DNA of 64,000 bases from a virus. Lineage: Duplodnaviria; Caudoviricetes. The stretch covers positions 1-64,000 of IMG/VR virus record IMGVR_UViG_2889049205_000001; one strand, 5' to 3'. How positions within the stretch are numbered: position 1 is the stretch's first letter; each line of letters opens with the position of its first letter. The position numbers and the translations under genes were made by a program. Below are positions 9,254 through 61,216 of the stretch, in pieces. The notes beneath the pieces were generated by a model. The model made no database searches and was not told where the DNA came from. It was given only the letters and a program-made list of their open reading frames with translations.

Positions 9254-9257
9254 GATG

Positions 9258-9554: not shown

Positions 9555-9575
9555 GAGAACCCCTCCTATGTAGAG

Positions 9576-9593
9576 AGGCAGCCGAAGCTGCCT
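9576..9593 (-). terminator. Hairpin with cUUCGg tetraloop (weak terminator or RNA-stabilising element)
   Basis: AGGCAGC-TTCG-GCTGCCT immediately after the stop of the upstream gene; poor U-tract. Confidence 0.5.
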
Positions 9594-9597
9594 GTGG

Positions 9598-10653: not shown

Positions 10654-10717
10654 CTCGTTCACTCCTTTAACAAGATAATGGGCCGCCCCAATGGGCGGCA
10701 CCTCGTCAGCCATTACC

Positions 10718-10750
10718 ATTATAATATCATGTAATGCGTTACACGGAAAC
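10718..10750 (-). promoter_or_regulatory. Putative internal promoter (TG-n-TATTAT / TATAAT) overlapped by the palindrome TGTAATGCGTTACA
   Basis: Minus strand reads TTTCCG-TGTAACGCATTACATGA-TATTATAAT. Confidence 0.5.
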
Positions 10751-22737: not shown

Positions 22738-22761
22738 GTGGCTCACCCCTTCGTAAGAGTA

Positions 22762-22783
22762 GCCAGCACCCGAAGGTGCTGGC
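22762..22783 (-). terminator. Hairpin with cUUCGg tetraloop downstream of the secreted-protein gene
   Basis: GCCAGCACC-TTCG-GGTGCTGGC, perfect 9-bp stem, followed by TACTCTT. Confidence 0.6.
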
Positions 22784-22791
22784 ATGATTGT

Positions 22792-36400: not shown

Positions 36401-37075
36401 AGTCTCCGCAGCTCCGCCGTCTATAGAAACGGAGGCTGTTCCTCGGTCTACATCCATGAGATCTATGATTCGAAGCATAGACCCGTAGAAGCTGAACTTA
36501 ATCTTATCGCCGATGGTATTGCTTGCTACACAGGCTCCCTTATAGTAAGAGGCATTTGTATAGGTATTCCAGCCGGCTCCGACATAAGAGATTTGTGCAG
36601 CACTATCAACACGCTGCCATCCCGTCTCTGGGGAAGTCAGTTGTTGACCTATTAAAGTAAGGCTTCCAATTAAATCGATGGCGTCAAACTCAAAGATCGA
36701 AAAGAATCCGGAATTCGTAGCCGAAATCGTAACGTCATGCGTGCCGTTTGATAGTCCCTTTTTTTCGAATAATAGAACCTGGCCTGCCGCTACGCCGTTT
36801 GCTGAATAGCTATCTGACTGCCCGTCAATGACTACCGAAACATTGGACTGCCGATCAGAGTCCCGATACGATATGATTCGAAGAGCAGTGCCATTGAACT
36901 TAAAAGTGACAGAATGCAAATCTGGCGAAAACGTATATCTGGCCGTGCCGCCCGAATAGTTTGAGCCAGGGTTATCCGACCACGATCCGCCTTGATATTT
37001 AAATCGAGAATCACTTTGTTCATACCTTGTCCAGCCTGACTCAGGCGCCGTTAATGCTTGTCCTACTGTGGCCAT
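33425..37075 (-). CDS. Large fibre protein: four ~137-aa beta-sandwich repeats, a C-type-lectin/FGE-like domain and a discoidin domain
   Basis: GQ.LT.PE..W.R repeats; LIADRNI...SW..LN...NEWD...RVVRG...YRPV; SNLVDG...W...PASFNIYGSNNG. Confidence 0.82.
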   Translation of the reverse strand: MATVGQALTAPESGWTRYEQSDSRFKYQGGSWSDNPGSNYSGGTARYTFSPDLHSVTFKFNGTALRIISYRDSDRQSNVSVVIDGQSDSYSANGVAAGQVLLFEKKGLSNGTHDVTISATNSGFFSIFEFDAIDLIGSLTLIGQQLTSPETGWQRVDSAAQISYVGAGWNTYTNASYYKGACVASNTIGDKIKFSFYGSMLRIIDLMDVDRGTASVSIDGGAAETYSTLAASSLFQRLVYEKKGLTIGIHTVEITLETSGYIGLDAIDIDSTGWMLAQVGQQLTAPEPTWLRVSNTDSHIAYLGSGWASYSHTNYEGGSTSASSNSDAKVVFRFYGTKFRIIELKETNRTTINIKIDGSDAGTYNPQGSPYQYQTLVYEIVGLALGVHTVELSLAGTGYIGVDAIDIDATGYMVAQVGQRLTAPEPGWRRYDDIHPSIKYAGGGWATVTNDPNTYAGTGHYMTLSGATTNSISFKFYGKNLRIIDLYYTNRVSNVKVSVDGVRYSYNPNNALNSYQLIVFEALNLPLSTHEVVITTDSTSNIFSIDAIDIDATGYLIHPDEVTNPKELTVGKRIRCYYEAPVAGSPGAFRSLGNNTLDLLPASPASTPSGAFYLICVGAERGDERIKLIADRNIQSSISWDALNRAGYATGVDLPSLSIADQFVVSARLLSGGIGSADKDNEWDKYIGGSTLGGTITAGDNNTWNWTGKWSLTSTTAPAGSNSNSSGAGSRVVRGNSSASGFSGVLSSEAGPTNNCYRPVFIIELLFSAKYLFQDGTDIKKCVLTTGVLPTITSVSATTSYQGPPSNLVDGATNTIWWSNGSGPQSVIFELSSAIAISSVDLTSGDRGADAPASFNIYGSNNGSDYLLVASIASTGFNGAATTKLPFTFGNDTAFKYYKFEFYGVGGNWVQLSEVRILPTTPPTASGWIKVGEAPVTREMFDSDGMDDLSLINNTMLQQLVSLTPELLVWTSDTQAQSKQAALTAVPKGRLVFPTGDIILPAQGIDSLTLTAKAEGAGNVRIIASVNQGATWKSISSQWITVEPSNLADVKANGLSPAVFNSIAIDQWKELLGGSNKIRFAFYLEIEEITDNAFADLITITPKPVSDKTPTIQSIKIIYDELTIEGRLQDLERINAINLAKLNFKSNALLMSEKYTLHDMVIDTCQAEEMKSISSSGAGETTSTESAFVNPVVLGSGKMLELNLAAIQKIKKVQVR
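35400..37072 (-). repeat. Four tandem protein-level repeats (~137 aa each)
   Basis: VGQALTAPESGWTR, IGQQLTSPETGWQR, VGQQLTAPEPTWLR and VGQRLTAPEPGWRR; each unit ends in DAID. Confidence 0.85.
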
Positions 37076-41930: not shown

Positions 41931-44900
41931 TCATCCCCTGATATATGATAAGTGCAGATGATTGAAGTGATCGTTCCGCTGCGTAATCACGGTACCAGGA
42001 TACTTGGTTTTGCACGTTGCAATGACGTCTACATCCCCATGTATGATTCCGCCAAACCCGGTCTCGACTGCACAATCAATCAAGATTTCCAAATTTCTTT
42101 TTTCCTTGCTCCCTTTCGGGAACCGGTATGCTCCGGAGATGTAAGGTGCATTTGGAGTATCGACATCGCACCCGTACCCCGTTCCGTGCCAGTTTGGATC
42201 CCCAGGGCGGTAAGCACTCGTGATGGCCATTGTTTCTCCGGTGCGACTCTTATACAGCGACCCCATGCGTTCAAGCGCATTGTAGGAAGCCTGCCGGATA
42301 AGCGAAGACTCAGAAACCAATGTGAGCCTAATATTGGTCAACGGCTGCGTCTTCAGATCAATTAAGACGCTTTTGGCTTCCGCCGGCTGCACTCGGTATT
42401 TCGTGCTGCCTTGAGTTCCGAGTACCGTGACGCCATCTGCGCTCGAAGCGCTGATCGGCGGCTTGTAGTTCGGGTCCAACATGGCAATCTTCCGCATGAT
42501 TCCGGCTATACCATTCGCCCAGTTTTTGTCTGTGGCATACTTCTTGTTCATGCCGACCAGGGTTGCCCCGCCAAAATACTTTCCGTCCGGCAGAAGATAA
42601 TCCCTCTTGATCTGCTGCGCTGCGAAGTTGATGCAATGCTGCTTGCTATCGAACGTCCAGGCAGACTCATAGGGGCTTGAATCGTAGGCGCCGTATCCAA
42701 ACATGTTGTTTTTGTCCCGGAAGATCCTAGAGTCCCCCCAGCCCGTCTCCCAGGCGGCGTGAGCTGCCAGATATAAGCCGTTGATGACCCCGGCAATCTG
42801 TACCGTCTGACCCGTCTTCGGGTTTCGCACAGGCGGGATAGAAGTCTCTACAGCTACAAACGCTTGTCCTAGACCGGCCAGCGGCGTTCCGGAAAATGCC
42901 TTGTTAATCGCCTCTGCCGAGATTCCGCTCGGCGTGTTCAGATCCATGTTGGCATATCCGGTTCCTGATTGACCCGGAACAGCTACCGGATCGACCGTGT
43001 AGATTGAGTCTCGATTATTTTCCTCGTCGAGTGAATCTACTCGTTTCAGGTAGGCTTCCTGCGCTTCGATAACCTCTTGCTCATATCTTGCTTTGAACTT
43101 CTCATCGTAAGGCACTACACGACGGTGAGCTTGAATGAAGTTGGCCACAACTACATTGGGGTCATACGGCAGATTATCCGTACTCGTTTCTCCTGCAGTC
43201 TGCACCTTCGGAATGTCAAACGCATCGGTCGCCTGCTGATTGGCAGCGTACTTGGAGACGTCTGCCCCCAGGAACGAGAAGAATACCGATTGCCACTTGC
43301 CAGTGAATATACGCTGGATCAAGTCGGGCGAGTCCGTGATAACCGAGCCTTTGTGACCATTGATGCCGGCCGAGAACTCATATCCGTCCTTCTGCAGCGT
43401 CGCAATCATGCAAGCTTGCCTCGTAAAGAGGAATCGTTCCAAATACTCCGCCACGCCCGCCAAGGCCACCTCTGTGACCAGTGTTTCAATCAGCACCGGA
43501 ATGATGCCGACTCCCGTCGCAGACACAGCTCCTCGGACCGCCCAGCGACCTGCCCGCAAGCTTTTTCCGGCGATCTTTGCACCAGTGAAAGCTAGCTTTG
43601 ACGTAATGCGACGCATCTTCGCTATTTTAGTTATATTGATTTTATCATAACCCAGAATACGGTTATCACTCAAAATGTCGTCAGCCTTGTCAAAGAGATC
43701 TTCCATCTTTGAGAGCTCGAGATTGTCCAATGTCTTGATGATATCGTCCAATAGCCCACTGGCTTTCCATTTCTTTCTCGTTTCTTCCGAGATGGGATTA
43801 TATTCCCGCCACTTGCCCGTAACCTCGTCATATTCCCATATGTTCGTGCCGGCAGCCGGCTTCGGATTTACATTGAGCATTTCTTTCAGCTTATCAATGC
43901 CCTTGTCGATTTTGAATGTCTGCGTCATTTTCTTGTATTGCCGTTTGATCAAGCCCCATGCCGCATTCATGATCGGGAATGCACCCTTGTAATTCGGGTT
44001 CGCCAGAATCCCACGGAGCACCAGTGTCATGGTGAGTGCCGTGCCGATCGAGTAGCAGCTGTGCATGAAGTTCATTTGAGTCTGGTCGGAATTGACGACT
44101 ACCGCATCCGGCTTGACCATCGTTATAAAACCGAACTCCATGTTCATCATCTGCGTGACTTCCCGCACCTCTGCCGGGCCTGTGATGCTGTTCCAAGTGT
44201 CATTGATTAGCATTTGGTCGAACGGCTTGACGGCCGGTTCTCCTACGAGAGTCAGGTATCCGTCGTACATCTCTTTGACATGATCTTTGAGTCCGCTCGC
44301 TGCGATCTTAATCGCAACGCCCTCATCGTAATACCATTTAAACGGCTTGTTCAGCCATCCACCGATGAGCGGAATGTTTTGGACCAGCCGGATGCCCTGG
44401 GCGTTCAGAGTCGTGTCCAGGTTCACCGTGCGCAGCTTCTCCGGCCAGATGTTTGTATCCACGTAGATCGGCTCCGTCGTGTCCAGCTTTCCCTCGTTGT
44501 AATACGTGCCGATCGCTACGTTGTACATGTTCTGCTCGGTGGCCGTGATGCTGTTATCCATGATGTTGGTCCAGCTATCAAAGACGTGGAACTGACGGAA
44601 TGTCTTTCGGTACAGCGAGATGTTGTCATCCTCGTCCACATGATACCCAAAGGCAATCGGCATGGTTGGCTTACCGCTGAATATTGTGCTTCTGAAATCG
44701 AACGGATGCACAGCCACAACATGATCTTGCCCGATTGCTGCCGTGATGTTCAGGACGTCCCACACCGTCTTGTCATACAAGTTAATGTTGATGCCAGGCT
44801 CGTCAGCATCCCCTACCCCAAAGAAGTCTCCCATCCGGCTCCAGAACCCGACCTCCGAATTGAGTTTGCCTGTCACCTCGTAGACATTCATGTTGATCTC

Positions 44901-47900
44901 GTTCATGATCCGGCTGGTTAACTCGCCGAACAGATTATCTGCCGGCCGCCCCGGAGCTCCGAAGTGGATGATTCCGAGCGAGTGCTTGGCGTAATCGGCG
45001 TTGCTGAAAGCCTGCTTTAGGTTTCCGAAGAAGCCCTGGTCATCCCGCAGCAATGCATCGACAATCTCCGTAGGCTCTTTCTTGCTGAAGATAAAACCGC
45101 TCGTTGTGTCATCCGGATTGGCTTTGATTTTGTTGGTCAGTTCGATGCCATCGTCTTGCACGACCACGGACACGCTTTCGCCGTTGTTCTGCAATTCTGT
45201 AATGGTGCCATTCATCAGCGTCGGCATGCTCATCGGATTCGATCCATACCCCATACGGAAGTGGACCCTGGCGCCAGTGCGGAGCATAATTGACTTGTAG
45301 AAGCTGGCATCTCGATTGCGGCTGCGCTCTGCCTCTTTAGCGGCGAAGCCCGGTGCGAGCAGCGATTGAACCAGATCCCATGCGCCATGATGTGTTAGAT
45401 CCATCGCCTTGACGCCATCAGATAGGCTGCCGTACACGTTGCTCATTTCGAGGGATAAGGTGCTTGAGGCCACCTTCCGGCTGTTCGTATACATGATGTC
45501 CGTAACAGCCTGATACCCAAAGTAACGGTCTGACATTTTGATCGTGCCCATGTATTGCCCTTCATCGACGAACATTAGGAAGAAAGACGGAAACGCCCGC
45601 ACAAGACGGCCACGTCGGTCGTATTTCTCCAGATCATGGAACATCTCACGCAGCGTCGTTTCCTCATCCTCAAAATCGGATTCTTCATGAACCGAGTCCG
45701 ATTTGGCATAGACGGTCGCATTCTGCAGGCTGGCTGTTTTGTAATCCGGCACCGGCAGCTCACTGACTTTCTTTTGAATGGTTGCCTCATCCCATTCTTT
45801 CGTTTGGCCGATGATCGTCAGCATCTTCTTGATTTGGACGACTAGTGCATAGGAGAGCTTCTTGTTGGATTTGTACAGCCGGCCATACTCTGTCTCAAAG
45901 CCAAGGTACAGGCAGACAGCAGCGGCAAAATAGCATCTCTCCGTATCCGTCGCCTTATCGGCGTTTAAGCCGAATGCATCGTAAACATACGAGCTGATCA
46001 TGTTCGAGGTCTTCACCTTGTTGAAATAATACTGTAGGTGTGCGACACCCGTCTCGATGTTGTACTCGTAGTTCATGCCAAGCGAATTCGGCTCCCCCAT
46101 GATAGGACTAACCCGCATAATGCCAATATGCGCCGCTTCCCGGATAAAGCTGGTATCGGCAAAGAACTTCATCTCTGCAGTCTGCATAATTGGCACGTTC
46201 GATTTCTCCACATAAACGTTGCCGAGCGACGTATTGGCGCCGTATCCTGTCGCATAGAAGTGACGAAGCTTTTCGTCAAAGGATTTTGCAAAGGCCACGG
46301 CCCATGATTGCTTAATGACATTCGTCTGCGGGTTCGGATTCAATGGGGTCTGCTGCTGAGCAACGGCAGCAGTAAGATCCTTCATTTTCTGAAAGGTCTT
46401 CTGCCGGATCAAGGACTCGAACTCCGTTGCCGTCAGATTGGTTTCATTCGTTTCTTCCGGTGCCTCCTGAGCAACGCTTGGCTTTTTGCTCGCCGCTCGC
46501 TCGGTCTGCAGCTTGGCCGTATAATCTTTCGATTTCTCATCCGGCTTGAAACTGGCTTTGTCAACCACTGCCGTGCCGCCTATTGTGTCCCTGGCTTCCG
46601 ATTTGAAGGCGCTGTTTAGGTGATCCACCGCCTCCTGACCCACCGTCACAAAGTCATCATAGATCAGGAAGAAATCCGGCTCGACGTAAAACCCATCGTT
46701 GTTGTTAATGATCTGAAAGCCCGCTTCAGCCACTTCCGTGTAGGTTGGTAACTCCAAATCCGGATAGATTTCCACCGCTGTGAAGTTCTTCTTGATCTTG
46801 GCCTCATACAAGACTTTTTGCTTCACGTCGAGATCCATGTACCCTTTGACAGCAAGATCTCTGAATACCGGTCGATCCTTCAGCCAGGATGCCCATCCGA
46901 AGAAAGGGATCAGCAGTTTGGCGTTTGAGTTTCGCCATCCATCGATCTCCCATACCGCATCGTCCCCGTTCATCAGCCTTGTTTCAGCCAGCTTCTTCTG
47001 CGCCCGGTTAAAAGCGATCAGCGTGAGCTGGATATCAAATACGCCTGGCTGCCCCTCGACTGTCGTGGATTGTACGTCTTGGACGACCACGAATTTGACA
47101 CCAAAGAGGTTGGCCAGCGGATGATCAAACTGGATGAAACCGTTAGAGATTTCCTTGTGGTATTCCCGCACCAGATAGTTTGCTCGGCGAACCATGCCAT
47201 CGAACTGCGCCAGTGTTTCCGAGTCATCCGTGCGGAAGCGGGCCACGATCACCGTATCTTGGGATCCCAAGTATTGATGTGTCGGTGTTTCATGCGCCTG
47301 GATCTGCAGCGACGTGATGACGTTCTGGAAGCTTATGCTGAGATCTGTCAGATGCAGATCATCAAACATCCAGTCTTCCATCGTAATGTCATACTCGAAG
47401 ATGGCTTTTTTGTAATGCTCGTCGAAGTTTTGGTTAAACAGATCCTCGTCGAGCTCATCGAACGGAAGTGTCTCTCCATCGAAATCCTCGATGTCCACGT
47501 ATTTCTTATCGGCCATGTCGTCCTGCCATGCCTTTATCATTTTATCCCGGTCCACCCGCCAGCGGCGGATCGCATCAAGGTCGCCCTCAAAGGCTGTCTT
47601 AAACTTGAACTGATCCGTCATCTCCTGGCGCATGGGTTCGAAATACGTATAACGTCCTTCGCTCGGCTCCAGGCTTCGACGATAGTACCAGCGGAATAAC
47701 GGCCAGTTGAAAAGATCGTCAAAGGTGCGGTCATTCTCGTTGAAAATGTAGACGAATGGATTAAATGAATAGAGCTGCAGATTTGCCGTAATCGCCTGCG
47801 GAAATCCTGGCACTGTGGAAACTGTGATTCCGGCAACGCTCACTGCCTGAATATCGTAGACGTCATTCAGGTGCATACTTTGGACCGGAAGAAATGGGCA

Positions 47901-48173
47901 CTTTTTGACCTGGGCCAGTAGCGGCCGCAACTCATTGTTGATTGACTCCATATCCGGGAAAAACAGCGACAAATCGACCACGAGATCGAAATAGCCGCTG
48001 CCCTTAATAAAACTGCCCCGGCTCCGGAGCATATTAACTGTTTCATTTTTCATACGCTTGGTGACGGTGATGGCCGTGGGAGGCACGTAAAACTGCGTAT
48101 CGCCAATGCGCAAATGATGAGGGAGAAGACTCCCATAGAGGGAGTCCCGATCATCTATTCCTTTTGAGGCCAT
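41931..48173 (-). CDS. Baseplate hub / tail-associated lysin mega-fusion (~2080 aa): tube-initiator-like domains, degenerate lytic transglycosylase, gp27-like hub, GH73 glucosaminidase and M15-family metallopeptidase
   Basis: Hub-like RVHFRMGYG...MNGTITEL; GH73 LAAHAAWETGWG...NNMFGYGAYD...YATDKNWA; M15 ITSAYRP...WHGTGYGCD...HLHLS; SLT-like GIMRV...NIETGVAHL. Confidence 0.85.
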   Translation of the reverse strand: MASKGIDDRDSLYGSLLPHHLRIGDTQFYVPPTAITVTKRMKNETVNMLRSRGSFIKGSGYFDLVVDLSLFFPDMESINNELRPLLAQVKKCPFLPVQSMHLNDVYDIQAVSVAGITVSTVPGFPQAITANLQLYSFNPFVYIFNENDRTFDDLFNWPLFRWYYRRSLEPSEGRYTYFEPMRQEMTDQFKFKTAFEGDLDAIRRWRVDRDKMIKAWQDDMADKKYVDIEDFDGETLPFDELDEDLFNQNFDEHYKKAIFEYDITMEDWMFDDLHLTDLSISFQNVITSLQIQAHETPTHQYLGSQDTVIVARFRTDDSETLAQFDGMVRRANYLVREYHKEISNGFIQFDHPLANLFGVKFVVVQDVQSTTVEGQPGVFDIQLTLIAFNRAQKKLAETRLMNGDDAVWEIDGWRNSNAKLLIPFFGWASWLKDRPVFRDLAVKGYMDLDVKQKVLYEAKIKKNFTAVEIYPDLELPTYTEVAEAGFQIINNNDGFYVEPDFFLIYDDFVTVGQEAVDHLNSAFKSEARDTIGGTAVVDKASFKPDEKSKDYTAKLQTERAASKKPSVAQEAPEETNETNLTATEFESLIRQKTFQKMKDLTAAVAQQQTPLNPNPQTNVIKQSWAVAFAKSFDEKLRHFYATGYGANTSLGNVYVEKSNVPIMQTAEMKFFADTSFIREAAHIGIMRVSPIMGEPNSLGMNYEYNIETGVAHLQYYFNKVKTSNMISSYVYDAFGLNADKATDTERCYFAAAVCLYLGFETEYGRLYKSNKKLSYALVVQIKKMLTIIGQTKEWDEATIQKKVSELPVPDYKTASLQNATVYAKSDSVHEESDFEDEETTLREMFHDLEKYDRRGRLVRAFPSFFLMFVDEGQYMGTIKMSDRYFGYQAVTDIMYTNSRKVASSTLSLEMSNVYGSLSDGVKAMDLTHHGAWDLVQSLLAPGFAAKEAERSRNRDASFYKSIMLRTGARVHFRMGYGSNPMSMPTLMNGTITELQNNGESVSVVVQDDGIELTNKIKANPDDTTSGFIFSKKEPTEIVDALLRDDQGFFGNLKQAFSNADYAKHSLGIIHFGAPGRPADNLFGELTSRIMNEINMNVYEVTGKLNSEVGFWSRMGDFFGVGDADEPGININLYDKTVWDVLNITAAIGQDHVVAVHPFDFRSTIFSGKPTMPIAFGYHVDEDDNISLYRKTFRQFHVFDSWTNIMDNSITATEQNMYNVAIGTYYNEGKLDTTEPIYVDTNIWPEKLRTVNLDTTLNAQGIRLVQNIPLIGGWLNKPFKWYYDEGVAIKIAASGLKDHVKEMYDGYLTLVGEPAVKPFDQMLINDTWNSITGPAEVREVTQMMNMEFGFITMVKPDAVVVNSDQTQMNFMHSCYSIGTALTMTLVLRGILANPNYKGAFPIMNAAWGLIKRQYKKMTQTFKIDKGIDKLKEMLNVNPKPAAGTNIWEYDEVTGKWREYNPISEETRKKWKASGLLDDIIKTLDNLELSKMEDLFDKADDILSDNRILGYDKINITKIAKMRRITSKLAFTGAKIAGKSLRAGRWAVRGAVSATGVGIIPVLIETLVTEVALAGVAEYLERFLFTRQACMIATLQKDGYEFSAGINGHKGSVITDSPDLIQRIFTGKWQSVFFSFLGADVSKYAANQQATDAFDIPKVQTAGETSTDNLPYDPNVVVANFIQAHRRVVPYDEKFKARYEQEVIEAQEAYLKRVDSLDEENNRDSIYTVDPVAVPGQSGTGYANMDLNTPSGISAEAINKAFSGTPLAGLGQAFVAVETSIPPVRNPKTGQTVQIAGVINGLYLAAHAAWETGWGDSRIFRDKNNMFGYGAYDSSPYESAWTFDSKQHCINFAAQQIKRDYLLPDGKYFGGATLVGMNKKYATDKNWANGIAGIMRKIAMLDPNYKPPISASSADGVTVLGTQGSTKYRVQPAEAKSVLIDLKTQPLTNIRLTLVSESSLIRQASYNALERMGSLYKSRTGETMAITSAYRPGDPNWHGTGYGCDVDTPNAPYISGAYRFPKGSKEKRNLEILIDCAVETGFGGIIHGDVDVIATCKTKYPGTVITQRNDHFNHLHLSYIRG

Positions 48174-48185
48174 ATATAACACCCC

Positions 48186-51100
48186 TTACATGTGCTGCTC
48201 AACTTTATCCCGGTACCAGAGCCTCGAAAGGTTATTGGTGTTATCGGAATAGTTTACGGTCATGTTGGACTGACCTTGATATCCGCTCCGGCGCATCCCT
48301 TCTTGAACTAGGGATGACAGCCCTTGTTGCTGGTTTCCTTGCCCTCTAGCGCTAATCGAGACGTGCGCTCCGGAGCTGGGACCGCCGATCGGCGGTAAAG
48401 GTGATTGCGGCACTGGCGCTGCCTGTGGCGGCGGAGGCGGTGGAACCGGCCCAGTGTCATTACTAAGAATATTGTAACCCATTACACCACCTAAAGCTAG
48501 ACCGCCAAGCAAGGCAATTTTCTTGTTTCTTGAACCATTCGGTCCATTGAAGATGTTCTCTGGGATCCAACCGCCGGTCAGGTCGTGCATCATCTCCGGA
48601 ATAGCGCCAGCACGCTTCCCTCGAGCTTCGGATCCCATTACATTCGTTGGGTCCAGTTCGGGTTCGACATTTGGGATAGTCGGATCAATATCAGGCTCCG
48701 GAGCGGCGCCTACACCTCTTTTCATCCTGCCGAACATCCGTGTGAACTCATTAGAGGAAACCCGGTCGCCCTCTTCAAGATTACCGAAAATGGTGTCATG
48801 CACTCTTCGAAGACCTTCATTCTCCACATTAATTCCGGAGCTAGTACCAACACGGAAGCCGGAGTTGGCCAGATTGCCATTCAGGTTACGTGGCTTATCC
48901 AGTAGTCCTATCGCTTCATCGAGCCCGTGTTCTCTGGACCACATGCCGCCATAGCTCTCTTGATCGATCCGGCGCACCTTATTCCAGTCTGAAGCCAGGA
49001 AAGCGGATCGGAACTCGGACACCGGAGACTTCATATCTTCCGTGATCACTACACCGTCCTTTGCGGCGTCGATACCCTTCTGCTCCAAGGTGCTCCCGAA
49101 TTTCGAAAGGAACTTGTACTCATTCGATCCTGTTCCATACGTATGCTCAGCAAAATCTTGGATGGCCGAGTTTAAGTTTGAGATCGTACCGATCTGCGTC
49201 TTACCGATTTTGTTAGCCATTTCATTCGGCAAGTTCGGCTCCATCGGACGGATGACGGTTGTGTCCTGACCACTATACGATTTCACCGCTTCCCGCAGGT
49301 CATAATTCCGGCCGGATGTAGAGAGCTTCTTATTCCCCTCTTGCGTCAAGTAATCTCCCCAGCTGCTGTATCCGCCCATAAACTCGGCAGCCCGCTTATC
49401 TTTCAGAGCAGCCCATTCTTTCTGCACGTTGTCTTCGTCCACGTAAACCATGTGTAACTGGTCTCCGTCGGCATCCCCTTCGAGCTGGTCGCCCGTAAAG
49501 GCTGTCGTCAGCACGTTACCTGTCTTCAGCTTAGGATCGATAGCGATCCGTGTGAACTGGACGGCCGATTCGTGTTTGGATGGGTAACGGATCGTGAGCA
49601 CGTTCTTGTTCTGCTGCCGGTTCCAATCGGAGAGAATATCACTCTCTGCCGCTGTGCCAACATGCTGCTGGCCGATGATGTGCTCGTAGATGCCCATGTC
49701 CTTAGCCTGCTGCGTGGAGATGAACGTCATTTCTTCGCCGAGCATCGCCGAAGCTTCCGGACCCAGGAGCTTTAATGTGCCTGTACCCGATGACGGCATT
49801 TGCGCCTTCAGAGCTCTCTCTCCGGCCATCCCTTTAGAAGTCAGCGTGTCGGTGCCGAGTTGATTCACGTAGCTGTTGACGTTCCGCTGGATGTCTCGCA
49901 TATGCTTCAAGGCGCTGTCACGGCCGGTCTTGGATTTCGCTTCGCCATATTTCTTTATGCTGTCATTAATATTGGCGATCTGCCGCTGCAGCTTATTCAG
50001 GTGGACCAGGTCGCTCTGCCCGTCTCCCTGTAACTGCATGAACGGCACGAAAATCTTGTTGGTTTTGACTGCCGGGCTGTTCTTTCCGTTGATGTTGATA
50101 TCGACTTCTTCCGGAAGCCCCAGCCAGAATCCGTGTCCCAAATCCCGTTGATCTATACCAAGATTGTGGGCAACTGCCTGACGATCCATGATCGTATGTT
50201 TGACCGTGTTCTGGTCGAGCTCCACTTCTGGCATAAATGCGAACTCATGACCTTGAAGAATGCGGTCCTTATAGGGCTGCATTTCCGGAGCATCCGGATC
50301 TACTAGCGCTTTGATGGTGTGCGCCAAATTCTTAACGTCGCTCTGCTCAAAACGATTCTGCTTCTCCATTACGTTCCAGATATGCTCATAAGTCTGTGTG
50401 GCTCCCGATCTGCGAAGGTACCGCATCTCACGATGACCAATCGAAGTGCCATCTAAACCGTTTGCGTAAACTTTTGAGCCATCATTTGCGTTGCCGATTA
50501 CCGACCGTCCTGTTCCATCAACCGACTTGTAATACTGCCGATTGTGCATCATGCGGGTTTCCAGAATACCCGTGAATAATCCGGTGTTGGTTTGTAGCTT
50601 AGCGCCGACTTGATTGGCAATCTTGTGGAAGTCCTCAATATCAATCGGCGCCTGTCTGCTCACATCCATGAATGAACCGTTCTTGAACTCCAAGCCAATG
50701 CGGCCGAAGTCTATTTGCTCCAGCAGCTGATCCCGCTTCTTCCGATCCTGGTTCATGACATGATCGATAATCGTCTTGGCGTAGCCTTCCATCATCATCC
50801 CAAAGTCAGCACGCTTAGCTGGGTTCGGACTGATCATAGCACTGATCCCTTTGTCGCCCGTGATAGCTTCGATGAACCGAAGGCTTGGTGTAATAGCATC
50901 TGTCCCCTTCTCACCGGCAAATGAGAGCTTGAATGGTTTCTCCGACCACTCTACGCCAAATACCTGCGATCCGGTCCCCACAAGTTTGCCTGCATATCGG
51001 TTGTCGTGGCGAACATCTTCCCAAGCGCCATCGACCCATTTGCGCCCAATTACATCACCCGGCCTAACAGCCGCACCTTCGAGCCCCTGGCCACCGACAA

Positions 51101-54100
51101 CAAAATCGCTCCCCCTCGCTGCGGCACCATTGCTAGCGAAGTCTTTGTGCCACTGAAATGTTCCGTTTCCCTTATCATAGAAGTCCTGGTCCGTAACTGA
51201 CATTGAATCCATGAGTTCCTTAGCGATGACTGCTTGCTGCTCATAAACAGTCGGTATCCGGCGTGGATCGACCACTTCCTTGCCGCCTCGGTTTACGAGG
51301 ATGCCTTCTGACCGAAGCAGCCCACGGCCCTGTTCTGTATTCTGTAGATCCGTCACCCGTTTGTGAAGCTCCTCGTTAGTGATGTAGGCTACCTTGAGGT
51401 TTACTCCGGTCCGGGTCGGTCTTCCTTTTCCCTCTTGTTCTGATCGGTAGGCGGCGTTTATCTCTGTCTCGACCATTGGATTGAAGTTGGCGTAAGCGTC
51501 AATCTTCGAGAGACGGCCAGCCACCTCATCAGAGATCATGTACATATTTTGGGACTGAATAGCATTCGGCCGCCCCATGTTAGTGTAATGTCCGTACAGC
51601 GTCATGTCCCGCATGTCCATGGTGGACATTGAGCCCTGTTGAACTCGTCCGTCTTTTACTGACGATACGTACAGGTTGGGGGTGCCCCCATCCCAGCGAA
51701 CTCGGTTGTTCCAATCGCTCATGCCCATTCGTATCTGAAATTGCTTGCTCATGTTTACGTCATCGATCGTCAGGAGCTGCTTCACCTTGCGACTGCGATC
51801 CTTCGAGTCGTAATAGAAAGCAGAATCGTTCAGGTCCCCTTCGGACAACTCTTTGGATTCCAGCATGCTGTGCAACATGGCCGGCATGACGTTGATGTGC
51901 GATTGCTTCATGAAGTCGGATTTGTTGCCTGACCAATCGTAGGTGTCGTTGAAATTATAGATATCTCGCTGCCCGCCAGCCAGGTTTGAGATTGAATCTC
52001 GTAATGTCCGATTGCTCCGGTAGGACGCCTTTTCGTAATCATCTTCGTCCAGCGCTGACAAGATGCCGTCCATACCATGGGCGTATCGCATGCCAATGAT
52101 TTCGGCTGTGGACTTACGAACAGCAGAACCTTTGCCGTCCTGCTCCTTTTCCCATACCGCCACCGTGTGAGCGATCATCCGCTGCTTATTGAGCACCTGC
52201 ATACCATCCTGGTTGATCAGTGGGATCAAAATCTCAACAGCCCTCGGGTGTGTCTTTCCTTCGAGCAGCGCTTCTCGGACGCTTGTGCTGTATTGCGGCT
52301 TGTATACTGTGATCTTCGCCATAGGCGAGTTAATATCTTGATTTACGCTGAGGTCGTACATGATGTTGCGGCCGGAGTTATTCAGTGACTGCAGTACGCT
52401 CTCGACGGCGCCTCGGTTGTTTGCCTTTAGCCCCGACAGGTGATTTGTTTCCAAGGACTCGAAGAACATTTCGGCGTCCGCATGCAGATTAACTTTGCCA
52501 CCCATCGTAAAGGCCTGGCCTTGATAGCTCAGGGTTTTGCGAATCGCCTCTCCTACGATGCTTTGGTTTCTTGCCCCGGTGATTCTCGACATATCACGAG
52601 CTTCAAGCGATGTTGTTTCCGGCGACTCCAGCGGAATGTTCTTGCTGTGCAGGTCCATAGCGATGCGAACCACGGTATCATTGATTTGGCCATTGCTTTG
52701 TGCAATAATGCCGTACCGCTTCTGAAGCTCGGAACCAATTAGGCCATTTTCATGCAGTCCATTTATGAACTGTGTCATCCGGTGCTGCTGTGTCAGCGGG
52801 TTATTGGAATCGTCCTGCTGAATATATCTGCGGATCGCACGTTCTGTTTGCTGCACGGACTGCATGCTGAAGAATCGCTCATCCCCATCTACATTTAAAC
52901 GGAATCCTCGATTCTCCCATGATGCCATCTCACGAGCGCCTACGTGCCGGCCTGCAGCATCATCTCGGCTTACCCCTTGTGTGTACAGGCGCCATGCAAT
53001 ATCTCGCTGCTGCCGAGCAGCTGCTCGCTCTGATGACGTCATGCTGTCCAGGATCGGAATCTGTTGTTCAATAGTGCGGATCGCCTCCTGGAACACAGGC
53101 CGCTCGCTGCGCAGACGAGGCGCCATCCGGTAGAACAGCTTCTCTTCGTCAATATTGTGGCCCCACTGCAGCTGGCCGTTAGCAAAGCCCACCGGCTTAC
53201 TGTTGAAGTCGAGCATGCTGCGATAACTATCGTTGCTGCGGTACGGCTCGACCTCTGCTCGGATCTGAGCCTCATACTTAGAGTAGAGGCTATTCAATAC
53301 GTTAGGATCTGTAGATCCCATAGAGCTGTATTCGGCGAGCGCAAGCGCTTGTGCTTTGGCTGCGATATTCTTCTGCTTGGCGCCCAGACGCTTTTCGTAA
53401 TGCTCCGTGTTCTCGTACATCCGCTTGGCAGCATCGAATCCAGCAGTACGACTCTCGCCGCCGGCACCTGATAAACTGGACATCCGTTCGTATCTGCGGC
53501 GAGCAAGGTCGGTTTCTCGGATCCGTCGGATTTCTGCCTGCTCGTCCTTGCTCATGCCGTTTACGTTATGGAAGCGGCTTTGCACGAACTGGGCAATCTG
53601 ATGCATGGAGTTCGGGCCCTGCCGGGTCACGTAACTGTATCGGTCATTATCGGAATCGAAGAGTTCCAGCACATGGCCATTTATTACGCCCTTATCATCT
53701 GTCAGCTCACGGACGCCATTGACGGTGTACAAAGTGCGAGCATTGATGACCGTGCGATTCCAGGAGACATCGTGCATCGCCATCTTGCCATCTTCAAGCC
53801 TGGCTTGAAAATCGAGATTGTCATCTCCGTAGGCTGCGTAACCGTTTGAGGCGAACAGCTTATCGCCTTTCTTGAGCACTTCTTTCTTGTTCCAAGTGAA
53901 TTCGGATGGCCGGATATTCATGCCTTCCATGGCACCACGGTTTTTGGCCGCATTGATTTTGTTATGAACCTTTGGCAGCGTTTTGTTGATTACTCCACCG
54001 AGACCCCGCTCATCAACGTCGGCGATCGCCGCATGCGCATCATCGCCGTCAATCCCCAGTGTTCGTCTAACCTCATGCATGGACAGGTAGCCCTGCTGGA

Positions 54101-55109
54101 AATATCGCCCCTTCATAACACCTTTGCCGCCGAACTCTTGATGGAAGTCAACCGGGTTGGCGTAAGCTGTCTGCAGTACCCGGAAATAGTCCACATGATT
54201 TTGAGGGCGGGCAATGGTCTGGCCAGTCTTCTTGCCGAACCGGTCCAGTGTCTCCAAGTCGAAGTTCTCCCCGTTGTAGGAGAAGAATGTCTGATCGGCG
54301 TGGCCTTGAACGAAGGTACGGTATTTACGCATCTGGTTGGCGACGGAATGCTTGTCACTCAGGCCGACAAGGTTGTTATAGCCGGACTGGATATGATCCC
54401 GATACATGTCGAAATTGAGAATGAATTTCTGATAACTGTACCGACCATTCATATCCTCAAGGCTCTTGATGATCGTATTATGCGAAAGCGTAGACTCGTT
54501 TAGGTTCGCTGCCTGCAGACCGGCTCCCGAGAGTGTCGAGTAGCGCATAAGGTTAACGATGGATCGGCGCTCAGCGTCGCTCATGTTGTTGAAAGCGAAT
54601 TTGTCCATTTTGATCCGGCGGATCAGAGAATCCAGATAGAGCTGGCTTTCTTTGTCCGGCTTGACTAGGAGGCTCAATTGCCGCCGGTTGTCGGCTTTGA
54701 AAAGTCCATCTTTGGTCTTTTGGAAACCCTGAATCGCAATCTCTGGAACGTGCAGGCCTTTTCCTGATGCTTCATCCCCGAGAGACTCGATATCGAAGGC
54801 GTAAAATACGTTGCTCTGCCCGCTCATGAACTTCTGGAATGCCTCAACCTGCTTTTGTCCCAGCTGCTGATGTGGGCTGCTGAAGTTCTTCAAAATAACA
54901 CTACCGCTCGACTTGATCGTTTTCTGATCCAAGATCGGAGTGTCGTTGATGGCACTTAGTACCCGACTGACCCGATCCTCTCGAGTCGGGTCGTTATCGT
55001 ATGATGCCTTTCGGGTTGCATGGAATGACGATAGCAGCGACCATTGCTGTGAAGCAGGGGTGGCCATCGGAATCCCTGTATTGTCAAAACCGTTTATTTT
55101 GTCATTCAT
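48186..55109 (-). CDS. Single-polypeptide two-barrel (beta/beta'-like) DNA-dependent RNA polymerase fused to an N-terminal DEDDh exonuclease, with a C-terminal hydrophobic segment (2307 aa); putative virion RNAP
   Basis: Colinear beta motifs (GRPNAIQSQ, GVNLKVAY, KLSFAGEKG, ISPNPAKRADFG, GHREMRYL) followed by beta' motifs (SKGMAGERAL, VLTIRYPSKH, EGDADGDQL). Exonuclease motifs FDIES, YNGENFD and HAAIAD. Confidence 0.85.
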   Translation of the reverse strand: MNDKINGFDNTGIPMATPASQQWSLLSSFHATRKASYDNDPTREDRVSRVLSAINDTPILDQKTIKSSGSVILKNFSSPHQQLGQKQVEAFQKFMSGQSNVFYAFDIESLGDEASGKGLHVPEIAIQGFQKTKDGLFKADNRRQLSLLVKPDKESQLYLDSLIRRIKMDKFAFNNMSDAERRSIVNLMRYSTLSGAGLQAANLNESTLSHNTIIKSLEDMNGRYSYQKFILNFDMYRDHIQSGYNNLVGLSDKHSVANQMRKYRTFVQGHADQTFFSYNGENFDLETLDRFGKKTGQTIARPQNHVDYFRVLQTAYANPVDFHQEFGGKGVMKGRYFQQGYLSMHEVRRTLGIDGDDAHAAIADVDERGLGGVINKTLPKVHNKINAAKNRGAMEGMNIRPSEFTWNKKEVLKKGDKLFASNGYAAYGDDNLDFQARLEDGKMAMHDVSWNRTVINARTLYTVNGVRELTDDKGVINGHVLELFDSDNDRYSYVTRQGPNSMHQIAQFVQSRFHNVNGMSKDEQAEIRRIRETDLARRRYERMSSLSGAGGESRTAGFDAAKRMYENTEHYEKRLGAKQKNIAAKAQALALAEYSSMGSTDPNVLNSLYSKYEAQIRAEVEPYRSNDSYRSMLDFNSKPVGFANGQLQWGHNIDEEKLFYRMAPRLRSERPVFQEAIRTIEQQIPILDSMTSSERAAARQQRDIAWRLYTQGVSRDDAAGRHVGAREMASWENRGFRLNVDGDERFFSMQSVQQTERAIRRYIQQDDSNNPLTQQHRMTQFINGLHENGLIGSELQKRYGIIAQSNGQINDTVVRIAMDLHSKNIPLESPETTSLEARDMSRITGARNQSIVGEAIRKTLSYQGQAFTMGGKVNLHADAEMFFESLETNHLSGLKANNRGAVESVLQSLNNSGRNIMYDLSVNQDINSPMAKITVYKPQYSTSVREALLEGKTHPRAVEILIPLINQDGMQVLNKQRMIAHTVAVWEKEQDGKGSAVRKSTAEIIGMRYAHGMDGILSALDEDDYEKASYRSNRTLRDSISNLAGGQRDIYNFNDTYDWSGNKSDFMKQSHINVMPAMLHSMLESKELSEGDLNDSAFYYDSKDRSRKVKQLLTIDDVNMSKQFQIRMGMSDWNNRVRWDGGTPNLYVSSVKDGRVQQGSMSTMDMRDMTLYGHYTNMGRPNAIQSQNMYMISDEVAGRLSKIDAYANFNPMVETEINAAYRSEQEGKGRPTRTGVNLKVAYITNEELHKRVTDLQNTEQGRGLLRSEGILVNRGGKEVVDPRRIPTVYEQQAVIAKELMDSMSVTDQDFYDKGNGTFQWHKDFASNGAAARGSDFVVGGQGLEGAAVRPGDVIGRKWVDGAWEDVRHDNRYAGKLVGTGSQVFGVEWSEKPFKLSFAGEKGTDAITPSLRFIEAITGDKGISAMISPNPAKRADFGMMMEGYAKTIIDHVMNQDRKKRDQLLEQIDFGRIGLEFKNGSFMDVSRQAPIDIEDFHKIANQVGAKLQTNTGLFTGILETRMMHNRQYYKSVDGTGRSVIGNANDGSKVYANGLDGTSIGHREMRYLRRSGATQTYEHIWNVMEKQNRFEQSDVKNLAHTIKALVDPDAPEMQPYKDRILQGHEFAFMPEVELDQNTVKHTIMDRQAVAHNLGIDQRDLGHGFWLGLPEEVDININGKNSPAVKTNKIFVPFMQLQGDGQSDLVHLNKLQRQIANINDSIKKYGEAKSKTGRDSALKHMRDIQRNVNSYVNQLGTDTLTSKGMAGERALKAQMPSSGTGTLKLLGPEASAMLGEEMTFISTQQAKDMGIYEHIIGQQHVGTAAESDILSDWNRQQNKNVLTIRYPSKHESAVQFTRIAIDPKLKTGNVLTTAFTGDQLEGDADGDQLHMVYVDEDNVQKEWAALKDKRAAEFMGGYSSWGDYLTQEGNKKLSTSGRNYDLREAVKSYSGQDTTVIRPMEPNLPNEMANKIGKTQIGTISNLNSAIQDFAEHTYGTGSNEYKFLSKFGSTLEQKGIDAAKDGVVITEDMKSPVSEFRSAFLASDWNKVRRIDQESYGGMWSREHGLDEAIGLLDKPRNLNGNLANSGFRVGTSSGINVENEGLRRVHDTIFGNLEEGDRVSSNEFTRMFGRMKRGVGAAPEPDIDPTIPNVEPELDPTNVMGSEARGKRAGAIPEMMHDLTGGWIPENIFNGPNGSRNKKIALLGGLALGGVMGYNILSNDTGPVPPPPPPQAAPVPQSPLPPIGGPSSGAHVSISARGQGNQQQGLSSLVQEGMRRSGYQGQSNMTVNYSDNTNNLSRLWYRDKVEQHM

Positions 55110-55120
55110 ATCCCCACATC

Positions 55121-58100
55121 CTAAACAATGGAATCCATATTGTACTTCAGGTACGAGTCGATCTCACGGCTCCGGTCTTCTTGATAGTCCATATTGATTC
55201 GGGATCCACCGTCACTGGCCGGAGTCACGGTCACTTGCACGTCCCATAGACCCTGACCATTCAGAACTTCTCGGATGTTGCGCTGCATGTCCCTGTATCC
55301 TCTAAAGTTGCTTTTGCCCGGACCGTTTCCACCTTCGTACATGTCCGGCAGCATGGCAGCCGACTGGACATCATCATCCCAGAAGTTGTAGTCGCTCAAA
55401 TCGATGCCTGCATCTTGAACAGCTTTTACCTGGTAATCTTCCAGGTTTACGTCCGGCTGCCAGCCGACCCAATTCTCATCAGGCAAGAACTTATCCTTGA
55501 AGTATTCTTCCAGTGGAACTTGATCCTCCAGCTCGTAACCCCAAAGGGCTTTGAGGACCCGTCCTTCGTTGTCCGGAACCAGATCCAAAATCCGCTGCTG
55601 ATCTTGAAGTCTGGCTTCTGCGAACTCATTGAAGAACCATTTATCCTTATATGGCATGGACCGCATGACCTTCATCCGGTCTTCGTAAGGATCGACGGCG
55701 TAGAGAGTCGTTTCAGCCTGTTCCTTATAGTTCAGTGCTTGAAGCACGGCATTAGGCAGGTACATCTCGTCCCTATCTTCCGTGATTAAGTTGAGCTGTG
55801 CATTGATCTCAGCTTTTCGATCTTCCCATCCTGCAGGTTGGTTCAAGTAAAGGTTTCGTTTCTCGTCCTGCAGCTCTTGCCGCTTGGCCTTGTTCATTTC
55901 TTTTTTCATGTCCCGGTCGTTAGCGATCGCCTCAACATCAATTCCCTGCTGATGCAGCTCCTCCTTCGCCCTTTCGTACAGGCCGGAGAATTTCATATAT
56001 TTCAGAACATCGAAATACTCGTTGATGTCTTGCTCTTTACGGCGTCGTTCTGGAATCCAGGTTTCACCGGTCTGTGCCTCATGAGCTGATCGCCAAATAC
56101 TGCCGGCAGCGAAAGCGGCCGATGTGGCTCCCATGATCTTGAGATGCCGGAACCCGCTTTTTCCTCGTCCAAACATAAAAATGGCTGGAAGAGCTGAAAA
56201 CATGAGTCCCGCTCCAGCGGCGAACAACACATTACCACGGATACCGGATTGATAGGCTGGGACAACGTAGTCATCAACCATGAAGTTGTCCCACGTCGCC
56301 CAGTCCTTTCCATAGATGTGATCCCGCTCGTATTCTTCCAAAGCTGTTCGGACCGGGAGGAACTTGGAGTTGAGAAAGGTATCGGCGTGCGCCATGGTTT
56401 CCCACCGGCGTCCTTGCGCAATCTCGCCTTTTGTGAATCGGGCATGGACGCCTGCAGCCGTGAAATCCGTCTCATTCTCTCTCATCTGCCCGTTTCGAAT
56501 AATCGTTTGGTTAACATTTTCAAGCCCTTTGAAGACGACAGCTCGCATCGTATTATATGAATCGTCGGAGCTGCGTCTGGATGGATCAGCGCTGATCCCG
56601 ATCGTCACCTTGTCGCCAACCTTAAAGTAAGATTGGAGAACACCCTCAGCTTTGGCTTGATATTTCATGCCGGCAAGTCGAATCGGCGTATCCGGCATCT
56701 CCTCGGTAAGGAAGGTGTAATCATCAAGGAACTTAGACACCGTGACCTTTTGCTTCTCAATATCGTTGTCCTTGAACCGGTAATCCGTAAATTCATATTT
56801 CGCTTTTCGCTTGGATACCTGGTCCTTTATGATTGCAGCTTGTCGGCGCAGCTCTGTGTCCTTGTTGTTGTCCTCGACATAATCCTTCCAGTAGCGATAC
56901 TCGTCGCTCCACGGCGCCACGTCAGCCAGGATCTTGAACTTATCGAAAGCGCCATAGTTCCCTGTCTCATCCGGATGAAGTTGGTTTACTCGCTCATAGG
57001 CTTCGCCTGGGAGTCTGTACTCACCATGTGCAATCTTCTGGTACGGATCACCCGTCTGGAAGTTGATGAAATACCCGCCACCGGGCATCCAGTCTGGCAT
57101 CGTATTTCGGATCGGATTAAACGTATCGAGCTGGCCACTGTCTCTTCTGATAAAACGACGCATAATCTCGGATACATCGCCGCCAGCGCCGCCCAGGTTT
57201 GATTCCCAAAACGCATTGGAAATGTTGGTGGCCGCATCGGCTTTTTGAATGATCATCTTATTCTTGTAAGGATCTCCGCCAATCAGCTCTTCAGCTGCGT
57301 ATTTATAAATACCGAGCGGCTCTGTCCAGTTTTCAAAGGCTTCTTGACTCTGCCATTCGAGGCTCGTCGGGTCTTGCAGGTTCCGCAGTTTACGGTTGAC
57401 GACTTCCTGGCGATATACAAAATCTTGATCAAACATAGCCCGTGGCTTGGTGTCTACCGTTGGAACGGGCTCCGCAGCCATGGCGAACATTTTGTTGATT
57501 GGCATGTTTTGTTTGGCCACATTCGAAGGCACGTAGATGGTGCTACTCGTCGCCGCATCTTGCATGACATAGGCGCCGGTAGCCGATCCGTTATTATCCA
57601 GCTCATTGCTGATGAAGTACCTTGTCGGGTAGCTGCCGGCTTTAGATTCAGCGAGGCGGGCCTTGCCATCCTCAATGTTTGCCATGGCCTGACTGCTCAC
57701 AGTCTGCTGCGGCCGACTGCTGTCGAAATAGGCACCGTATTGGTCCGGGGTCGCTTGAACGACATGCTCCATTCGACCACCCGGCGACACCTTGGTTAAG
57801 ATCGGATCTGCCGGCCGTTCGGCCAATTGATCAGCCTGCTCCTGCACCAACACTGGATCACTCCAGTATTCAGTGTGCATCTGTCTAACTGGCTTCACGA
57901 CTTGGCCAAGCGCAGCGTTTCCGAGATCCCCAAAGACCATTGTGTTTGGGTTGAATAGCGATCCGGTAAGCATGTACGGCCGATCGTAATAGTGCTTGTT
58001 TTCCCACCAATATTTGTCCTCTTCGGAGTTGAACAAGTTGCGGGCAACGCCCAGCGGGTTCTCTAGTGTCGGGAACGCCGAGTGCTCCCAGCGCTCTTGC

Positions 58101-61057: not shown

Positions 61058-61216
61058 CTGTTGCACCTCGCTTATGGCAATGGGCAGCCGGCTTTTTCAT
61101 ACCAGATCTGGAAGAAGATCTCCCAGGCATCTTGAATGCACCATCTGCCCTCTCCGTATTTTCGATTCACCCTGGGGTCCTTATAGATCAGCGATATCTG
61201 CTCATGTAACTGCATA

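Follow-up and report, generated by a model that had tools for sequence, protein, structure and literature searches.

The stretch of DNA analyzed here (the window) comprises positions 1 to 64,000 of the viral record IMGVR_UViG_2889049205_000001 (Caudoviricetes), and its subject is an open reading frame (ORF) on the minus strand, at 48186..55109, which according to the ORF list and its translation encodes a protein of 2307 residues. An earlier note, made from the letters alone, had proposed that the C-terminal half of this protein, in the middle of a tail gene module, is a divergent single-chain RNA polymerase of the two-barrel type. The layout that we obtained for the gene (see the list below) strengthens this proposal and adds two features absent from that note, a DEDDh exonuclease domain at the N terminus and a single membrane helix close to the C terminus.

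The gene and its predicted domains

48186..55109, minus strand: whole gene, with a DEDDh exonuclease, a conserved middle, a single-chain polymerase core, a membrane helix, and a C-terminal tail
53985..54848, minus strand: DEDDh 3′-5′ exonuclease domain (DnaQ/RNase T/PolB-exo type), residues ~88-375, predicted from invariant residues and profile/Pfam matches
51753..53984, minus strand: middle region, residues 376-1119, conserved across the family and also found in KLEB27-3 gp034 and WH1 gp095
50358..51752, minus strand: β-like module, residues 1120-1584, predicted from invariant columns and an AlphaFold2 (AF2) model aligned to Escherichia coli β and to the non-virion RNA polymerase (nvRNAP) of phiKZ
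50907..50930, minus strand: K1394-x6-K1401, predicted β-type catalytic lysine pair (family consensus FK.....EK.T), invariant in 29 sequences
48750..50357, minus strand: β′-like module, residues 1585-2120, predicted from a separate AF2 model, an exhaustive VIA search, and ESM Atlas
49401..49799, minus strand: β′-type double-psi β-barrel (DPBB), residues 1771-1903, matched by stand-alone DPBB structures in VIA
49581..49589, minus strand: R1841-Y-P1843, counterpart of β′ N-R-A-P, with R and P invariant in 29 sequences and aligned to the R-x-P of phiKZ β′ and host RpoC
49461..49475, minus strand: D1879-A-D1881-G-D1883, predicted metal-binding loop (family consensus A-D-S-D-G-D), with D, D, G, and D invariant in 29 sequences
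48462..48521, minus strand: single hydrophobic, membrane-helix-like segment, residues 2197-2216, followed by a proline-rich linker; from Kyte-Doolittle values, conserved in close homologues
48189..48302, minus strand: conserved C-terminal tail, residues ~2270-2307, nearly identical in the three closest homologues

The globular enzyme domains account for ~1300 of the 2307 residues. Between them, the middle region gave no usable match in Pfam, PHROG, or ESM Atlas (the last searched with residues 400-1119). Downstream of the enzymes, residues 2197-2216 form the sole 19-residue window in the entire protein with a Kyte-Doolittle mean above 1.4, and the stretch that follows (residues ~2219-2304) matches WH1 gp095 (1e-9), KLEB27-3 gp034 (8e-5), and CDS0031 of a Moorella phage (1e-3).

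The polymerase core

To define the family, residues 1120-2120 were used as the query of an exhaustive phmmer search against 1.8 billion representatives. This identified 42 homologues, the full-length members of which are 1873-2729 residues long, many of them encoded on contigs of ~200 kb. The core was aligned over 29 sequences, which share 23-60% identity with the query and have a mean column identity of 27%. In this alignment, E1290, K1394, E1400, K1401, T1403, K1432, R1560, E1561, R1841, and P1843 are invariant, and so are D1879, D1881, G1882, D1883, K1970, G1974, Q2010, I2013, K2017, and a few structural Gly/Pro residues. The β-like module comprises a fork-like GR(P/D)N..Q..N motif followed by E1290, the lysine pair, K1432, and R1560-E1561, and the β′-like module is predicted to consist of a helical hairpin, a switch-2-like SSKG motif, the catalytic DPBB, and long helices bearing K1970/G1974 and Q2010/I2013/K2017. 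Eight residues, including R446 and P448 of Rpb1 and D837 of Rpb2, have been listed as universal in two-barrel polymerases (PMC2919709). Seven of these eight (three Asp, the R-x-P, and two Lys) are invariant in the family, the two Lys being putative counterparts of K1065 and K1073 of β. The eighth, an Asp on the β side, is plausibly represented by the invariant E1290, which sits in a Y-E-Q-Q motif in the correct order but is a Glu, whereas Rpb2 D837 is an Asp.

The structural models point in the same direction. For residues 1120-2120 (1001 residues), AF2 run on the 29-sequence alignment produced a model with a pLDDT of 89.5 and a pTM of 0.87. Foldseek returned at least 500 matches to this model in the Protein Data Bank (PDB) at E ≤ 0.001, and the 50 matches listed are all RNA polymerase β′ or β/Rpb2 chains, with probabilities of 0.99-1.00. 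When aligned with VIA, model residues 1-465 (residues 1120-1584 of the protein) superpose on residues 540-1298 of E. coli β, a span that includes the β barrel, with a Z-score of 15.6 over 372 residues (RMSD 4.6); the score of this module against the phiKZ nvRNAP (8que_C) is 15.7. The β′-like half (residues 1585-2120), which was also modeled alone with a pLDDT of 85, was compared by VIA with 48,161 PDB representatives. The 13 best-scoring structures are, without exception, largest subunits of RNA polymerases (Z 9.5-12.1, 260-422 residues aligned), including those of human Pol I (Z 12.1, 408 aligned) and Mycobacterium tuberculosis (β′, Z 11.3, 421 aligned), as well as archaeal, vaccinia, ASFV, AR9, and phiKZ subunits. 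Structures that consist of a DPBB only, such as the designed DPBB 7dww and the Cdc48/VAT N-domains, fall on residues 1771-1903 (Z 8-9, RMSD 2.0-2.3, 84-88 residues aligned). In ESM Atlas, 464 of the 536 residues of this half align, with a TM of 0.59, to a viral cluster with Rpb1 domains 2, 3, and 5. The top match in BFVD is a "minor tail protein" of an uncultured siphovirus, which covers the whole core (E 6.6e-22, TM 0.56), and the next whole-core matches are proteins of Acinetobacter phage ME3 and Microcystis phage MaMV-DC.

These computations show residues 1120-2120 as a predicted single-chain, two-barrel nucleotide polymerase core of the cellular β/β′ type, uninterrupted by a gene break. 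The fusion of β and β′ cores proposed in the earlier note is supported by the AF2 models, by all 50 Foldseek matches listed, and by VIA (Z 15.6 for the first half and 11-12 for the second), and the pair of barrels and the conserved DxDGD, lysine pair, and R-x-P are all there in the models and the alignment. The 13 motif strings on which the proposal was built each occur once, in the order and with the residue numbers that it gave, DADGD being at residues 1879-1883 (nucleotides 49461-49475). Two of the individual residues it singled out fared less well, since R1433 is not invariant, unlike the adjacent K1432, and R1180 is an Arg in most members but a Lys in two.

The by-eye alignments to β and β′ that accompanied these strings are, taken singly, at the border of noise. 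The family profile, compared with all PDB sequences, found as its best match phiKZ β′ at the R-P...DxDGD site with an E-value of 0.29; hhalign aligned the family to the N-R-A-P...N-A-D-F-D-G-D site of host RpoC at 0.044; and nothing significant was found for host RpoB (0.59). Single-protein searches of Pfam, PHROG, and PDB sequences gave no significant match, and when the whole protein was compared with 50,697 phage records by tblastn, none matched at 1e-5. These nonsignificant E-values are what speaks for a chance likeness of motifs in a protein that is no polymerase. That reading is effectively refuted, with a probability close to nil, by the agreement between two independent models of high confidence, the three structure libraries searched, and the invariance seen across the family. 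We therefore accept the by-eye alignments, because their key residues are invariant in the 29 sequences and the predicted structure agrees with them.

Among two-barrel polymerases, the modeled core is nearer to cellular-type multisubunit enzymes than to QDE-1 or YonO, a placement supported by the structural scores. Lower VIA scores were obtained for P23-45 gp96 (Z 7.6, 187 residues aligned, covering the barrel and the subsequent helices), for QDE-1 (Z 6.4, 170 aligned), and for plant RDR2 (Z 6.4). Since gp96 and QDE-1 score below the largest subunits (Z 11-12), we call the core cellular-type. gp96 gave no sequence match in the PDB-sequence searches. The RNA-dependent RNA polymerase (RdRP) family PF05183, to which the YonO-like gp99 of Bacillus phage 0305phi8-36 is matched at 1.1e-20 in the same search, has no match at E ≤ 1 in the protein, nor any match elsewhere on the phage contig. 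In the AF2 model, ~100 β-rich residues lie between E1290 and K1394; a sandwich-barrel-hybrid (flap) insert within the β barrel is a mark of the cellular-type clade (PMC7824862). crAss gp66, YonO, and PolD DP2 are absent among the 50 matches listed for each structure search and may nevertheless be related. The earlier note had likened the motifs downstream of DxDGD to those of QDE-1-like enzymes, an assignment less apt for a core nearer to the cellular type (QDE-1 at Z 6.4, no Pfam RdRP match); by eye, the consensus of these post-catalytic motifs is reminiscent of two β′ elements, the trigger loop and the bridge helix.

Both halves have their best structural matches in RpoB/RpoC, Rpb2/Rpb1, and the non-virion polymerases of phiKZ and AR9. 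With cellular β/β′ the protein shares the order of a fork-like motif, an acidic residue, the lysine pair, a switch-3-like HRE, the helical hairpin, a switch-2-like motif, R-x-P, DxDGD, and long helices. It differs in being one chain of ~1000 residues, as opposed to two subunits totaling ~2500, in having no Pfam-detectable similarity to them, and in its fusion to an exonuclease and to putative virion-targeting parts.

The exonuclease domain and the tail-gene setting

Upstream of the core, residues ~90-370 are shown by computation to correspond to an intact DEDDh 3′-5′ exonuclease, with D106, E108, D284, H359, and D364 as predicted catalytic residues. When the N-terminal halves of 22 members were aligned, D106, E108, N279, G280, F283, D284, H359, and D364 were invariant, a set that constitutes the DEDDh signature (ExoI D-x-E, ExoII N-x3-(F/Y)-D, and ExoIII H-x4-D). 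The N-terminal family profile matches archaeal PolB exonuclease domains in the PDB at their ExoII segment (E 3.5e-5), and Pfam detects RNase_H_2 in 16 of the 22 members, PolB_exo in 8, and RNase_T in 6, the protein taken alone being under the Pfam cut-off for exonuclease families (E 0.03-0.07). By these computations, the predicted polymerase and exonuclease are both intact and under purifying selection. Our literature search found no description of an RNA polymerase fused to an intact proofreading-type exonuclease. Nor did it find any description of the family itself, returning only the P23-45 paper and general reviews.

Two members are encoded by isolated Bacillus phages. The family hidden Markov model (HMM) recognizes KLEB27-3 gp034 (2434 residues, DYDGD at 1933; E 4e-32 for the core and 2.8e-57 for the N-terminal half) and WH1 gp095 (2515 residues, DHDGD at 1996; 1.5e-26 and 1.7e-35) as full-length members occupying the same genomic slot, and both are annotated as structural proteins. 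Elsewhere, source labels read "hypothetical protein" or "DNA polymerase III epsilon subunit-like," so that the mislabeling anticipated by the earlier note does occur in databases. Only 2 of 400 other species genomes of the same class carry the family, which fits a sporadic phage gene. A profile search with a narrow alignment found no locus in the genome-contig collection, and in IMG/VR it retrieved only two contigs that were already known.

The phage contig is 228,841 bp long with 50% GC and is part of a three-contig assembly with the 7.05-Mb chromosome (55% GC) of a Gram-positive host. By its sequence, the phage is a jumbo myophage, i.e., one with a contractile tail, of the Bacillus phage 0305phi8-36 lineage. 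The virion genes of the contig match PHROGs built on 0305phi8-36, and the relatives found by tblastn are limited to 0305phi8-36, Moorella phage MTATph1, and Bacillus phages KLEB27-3, WH1, and Edson. The gene under study is flanked by two others of similar size:

55121..61066, minus strand: upstream neighbor, 1981 residues, homologue of 0305phi8-36 gp145 (BLASTP E 3e-116)
41931..48182, minus strand: downstream neighbor, 2083 residues, baseplate hub/tail lysin with a glucosaminidase domain, gp147 homologue (PF01832, 2.7e-13; phrog_20474, 1226 bits; tblastn)

The tblastn links of the downstream gene extend from gp147 to the Moorella, KLEB27-3, and WH1 homologues. Since it lies between homologues of gp145 and gp147, our gene occupies the gp146 slot of 0305phi8-36. 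The order of the three giants is kept in a 213-kb metagenomic relative, and the giant tail-module genes, ours included, are shown by the computations to form a conserved cassette. In the annotation of 0305phi8-36, gp145 and gp146 are virion proteins verified by mass spectrometry, gp147 is a lysin, and gp146 is a "hypothetical tape measure protein"; the detection of gp146 in virions has been published (PMC2147016). gp146 resembles our protein in its hydrophobic segment and C-terminal end and has a marginal ExoI-type match. DxDGD is missing from it, the polymerase profile does not match it, and BLASTP of our protein against gp146 and Moorella CDS0027 finds a short ExoI-like patch only. Hardies et al. 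report that gp146 can be aligned with its positional counterparts over its last 60 residues only (PMC2147016). In Moorella phage MTATph1, the genes filling the corresponding slot (CDS0027-0031, 7775-15131 of the record region) include a transposase gene; CDS0027 has an exonuclease-type match and CDS0031 the conserved C-terminal tail, and no polymerase module was detected there.

The slot of an annotated tape measure, and a gp146 that manages without a polymerase module, are what could be expected if the protein were a structural component of the tail lumen, its polymerase fold being catalytically dead bulk or a scaffold relic. We regard this as very unlikely. The residues that define the active site are invariant over 29 sequences that are 23-60% identical, and such invariance, against a mean column identity of 27%, is the signature of selection on catalysis. 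The protein may also measure the tail; ~1300 of its residues are globular enzyme, and the 1981-residue gp145 homologue is an equally good candidate for a tape measure. This neighbor has no Pfam/PHROG match, shows hydrophobic segments at residues ~1600-1660 in its BLAST alignment to gp145, and directly follows putative tail chaperone genes; it may be the real tape measure.

As regards other polymerases, 0305phi8-36 encodes gp99, a separate YonO-like enzyme (PF05183, E 1.1e-20) (PMC2147016; PMC7824862). In KLEB27-3 and WH1, the fused polymerase is present and no PF05183 gene was found, and the four phages compared, a small sample, show a complementary pattern, with either a polymerase fused in the tail module or a free YonO-like one. 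YonO of SPbeta, gp99, and the QDE-1-type enzymes (PF05183) are, like our protein, of the single-chain two-barrel type, to which the enzyme of 0305phi8-36 has been assigned (PMC2147016, PMC2919709), and they are found in phages of Bacillota. gp99, however, is not a virion protein, and its gene is distant from the tail genes, among which ours lies. On the phage contig we found no Pfam match to Rpb1 domain 2, a T7-type polymerase, or sigma-70 region 2, and no alpha, omega, or sigma partner was detected.

A proposed role at the start of infection

Two-barrel polymerases carried in the virion are on record for the crAss-like phages and for a single lineage of Thermus siphophages. The whole of the evidence leads us to think it probable that the protein is a polymerase carried in the virion and ejected into the host, where it would start phage transcription without the host polymerase. 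The protein would be made late, together with the tail proteins, and built into the virion in or beside the tail lumen, where its C-terminal tail would dock onto the product of the adjacent hub gene. At infection, it would be ejected into the cell envelope or the cytoplasm, the C-terminal tail and the membrane helix engaging the hub and the membrane, and the polymerase would then transcribe the first phage genes off the entering DNA with no need for host polymerase, by analogy with P23-45 gp96, crAss-like gp66, and the virion RNA polymerase (vRNAP) of N4.

The closest precedent for this function is gp96 of P23-45, a virion two-barrel polymerase fused to a tape measure, which was shown to transcribe pre-early genes (PMC10770324; PDB 8H2M/8H2N). 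Both are DxDGD two-barrel polymerases within a giant tail-module protein annotated as a tape measure and endowed with membrane segments. However, in gp96 the polymerase is N-terminal within 5002 residues and the tail is non-contractile, whereas here it is in the C-terminal half of 2307 residues in a jumbo myophage. The structural likeness of the two is modest (Z 7.6 over 187 residues, below the 11-12 of the cellular largest subunits), and the published description of gp96 contains no exonuclease domain, which our protein has. P23-45 also has a second, non-virion polymerase, of which no counterpart was detected on our contig. In two further systems, phi14:2 gp66 of crAss-like phages (PDB 6VR4) and the N4 virion polymerase, the enzyme is likewise part of a giant multidomain virion protein, which is ejected to transcribe early genes. 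The hairpin promoters of N4 are a possible parallel to a hairpin on our contig, described below. The N4 polymerase itself is T7-like rather than two-barrel and uses hairpin promoters, and both crAss-like phages and N4 are podophages.

Several points weigh against the proposed role. The location in the virion is deduced from gene position and from the annotations of distant homologues, and a globular polymerase of ~1000 residues plus a globular exonuclease would be awkward in the lumen of a tail tube, which makes another route possible, e.g., the head. Activity, template, and product are predicted from the fold and the conserved residues. The Asn that precedes DFDGD in cellular β′, where it aids ribose recognition, is a Gly in our protein and an Ala in the family consensus. 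In addition, the conserved His of the trigger-loop-like motif of the family is replaced by an Asp in our protein.

Some of these points bear on what the enzyme might synthesize. It could be a two-barrel polymerase with another chemistry, either an RdRP of the QDE-1 type or an enzyme of DNA synthesis or priming akin to archaeal PolD, with a fused proofreading-type exonuclease. DEDDh exonucleases typically partner DNA polymerases and the best PDB matches of the domain are PolB exonuclease domains, the ribose-sensing Asn is not conserved, and QDE-1 and plant RDR2 are among the structural matches (Z 6.4). We nevertheless find this doubtful, and give it little credence, since the β/β′ subunits of DNA-dependent RNA polymerases are closest by a wide margin (Z 15.6 and 11-12), a DNA Pol III alpha is encoded on the contig itself (contig positions 187277-188077, E 3.7e-82), and the protein has no Pfam RdRP match.

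Other points bear on where the enzyme acts. An active RNA polymerase might not be packaged at all but be made late and work in the cell, on late or middle genes, its position among the tail genes being incidental. Placement in the virion is indeed indirect, our searches of the contig revealed no further polymerase or sigma factor of the phage that could serve middle or late genes, and an enzyme so large and globular would not easily enter a tail tube. Yet the slot between the gp145 and gp147 homologues is strictly kept in distant relatives, the records list the neighbors, and gp146 as the positional counterpart, among virion proteins, and the KLEB27-3 and WH1 members are annotated as structural. 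Moreover, positional counterparts without the polymerase also possess the membrane helix and C-terminal tail, which suggests a common role in assembly or ejection. We consider an unpackaged enzyme unlikely.

For the exonuclease, our best guess in the framework of an ejected polymerase is that it trims the end of the entering DNA, or host nucleic acid, and so provides a single-stranded template for the polymerase; alternatively, it may trim RNA 3′ ends.

A candidate promoter element was found beyond the window. It consists of a variable 4-bp stem, CTRTCG, and the complementary stem, followed within a few bases by ATTC (ATTC-N5-GA). The contig has nine copies, all on the plus strand between 103 and 159 kb (at contig positions 103249, 108831, 110407, 110854, 112029, 116135, 120493, 146348, and 158957), and none on the minus strand. 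They lie in the plus-strand block of non-structural genes, upstream of genes, six of the nine between called ORFs. The host chromosome has seven copies in 14 Mb (both strands), an enrichment of ~80-fold on the contig. In a relative with a complete genome of 197 kb, whose polymerase is 43% identical, all seven occurrences of the pattern without its stem are on a single strand, as compared with two on each strand for the control. Of eight copies inspected in this relative and in a fragment of another, four have retained a stem of 3-5 bp, the sequence of which is different. This distribution is consistent with a set of phage-specific promoters, which may, although the link is speculative, be those of our polymerase. 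Two considerations tell against such a link: no enrichment of the hairpin is seen in KLEB27-3 and WH1, the more distant phages with the family, or in 0305phi8-36 and the Moorella phage, and it could equally be an element acting at the RNA level.

A more elaborate version of the ejected polymerase would join these elements into a self-contained transcription starter that replaces the YonO-like enzyme of 0305phi8-36. The exonuclease would cooperate with the polymerase, either by resecting the end of the entering genome and exposing a single-stranded template with N4-style hairpin promoters or by trimming RNA 3′ ends. We think this improbable as a whole; were RNA trimming to be confirmed, it would make our protein the first among RNA polymerases to have an exonuclease domain of its own for proofreading.

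Neither the single-chain format of a two-barrel polymerase nor the fusion of a virion polymerase to a giant tail protein is without precedent, and the protein does not define a new category. What is new is a distinct family, its architecture, in which an exonuclease is combined with a cellular-type core in the C-terminal half, and the phage group in which it is found. If our proposal is correct, the virion-polymerase strategy extends to contractile-tailed jumbo phages of Bacillota, as a separate lineage with a core of cellular-type appearance. A gene labeled "hypothetical" or "structural" in the isolated phages KLEB27-3 and WH1 would be re-annotated, and the "tape measure" assignment in the 0305phi8-36 lineage would be questioned. 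The family would also offer a compact single-chain cellular polymerase core of ~1000 residues for structural and evolutionary work, and a natural comparison between related phages with a fused enzyme and those with a separate YonO-like polymerase.

Two more giant virion genes are present in the window, at 16204-22785 (minus strand, 2193 residues) and 33425-37075 (minus strand, 1216 residues). Both have partial PHROG matches to virion/tail proteins of the 0305phi8-36 group, and their N-terminal parts are unexplained. Finally, the phage contig is separate and has no terminal overlap, and it shares with the chromosome one tRNA-sized stretch of ~80 nucleotides only (contig 93348-93429). A separate contig with a near-absence of sequence shared with the chromosome suggests an extrachromosomal genome (carrier state or phage-plasmid) or co-sequenced virions.

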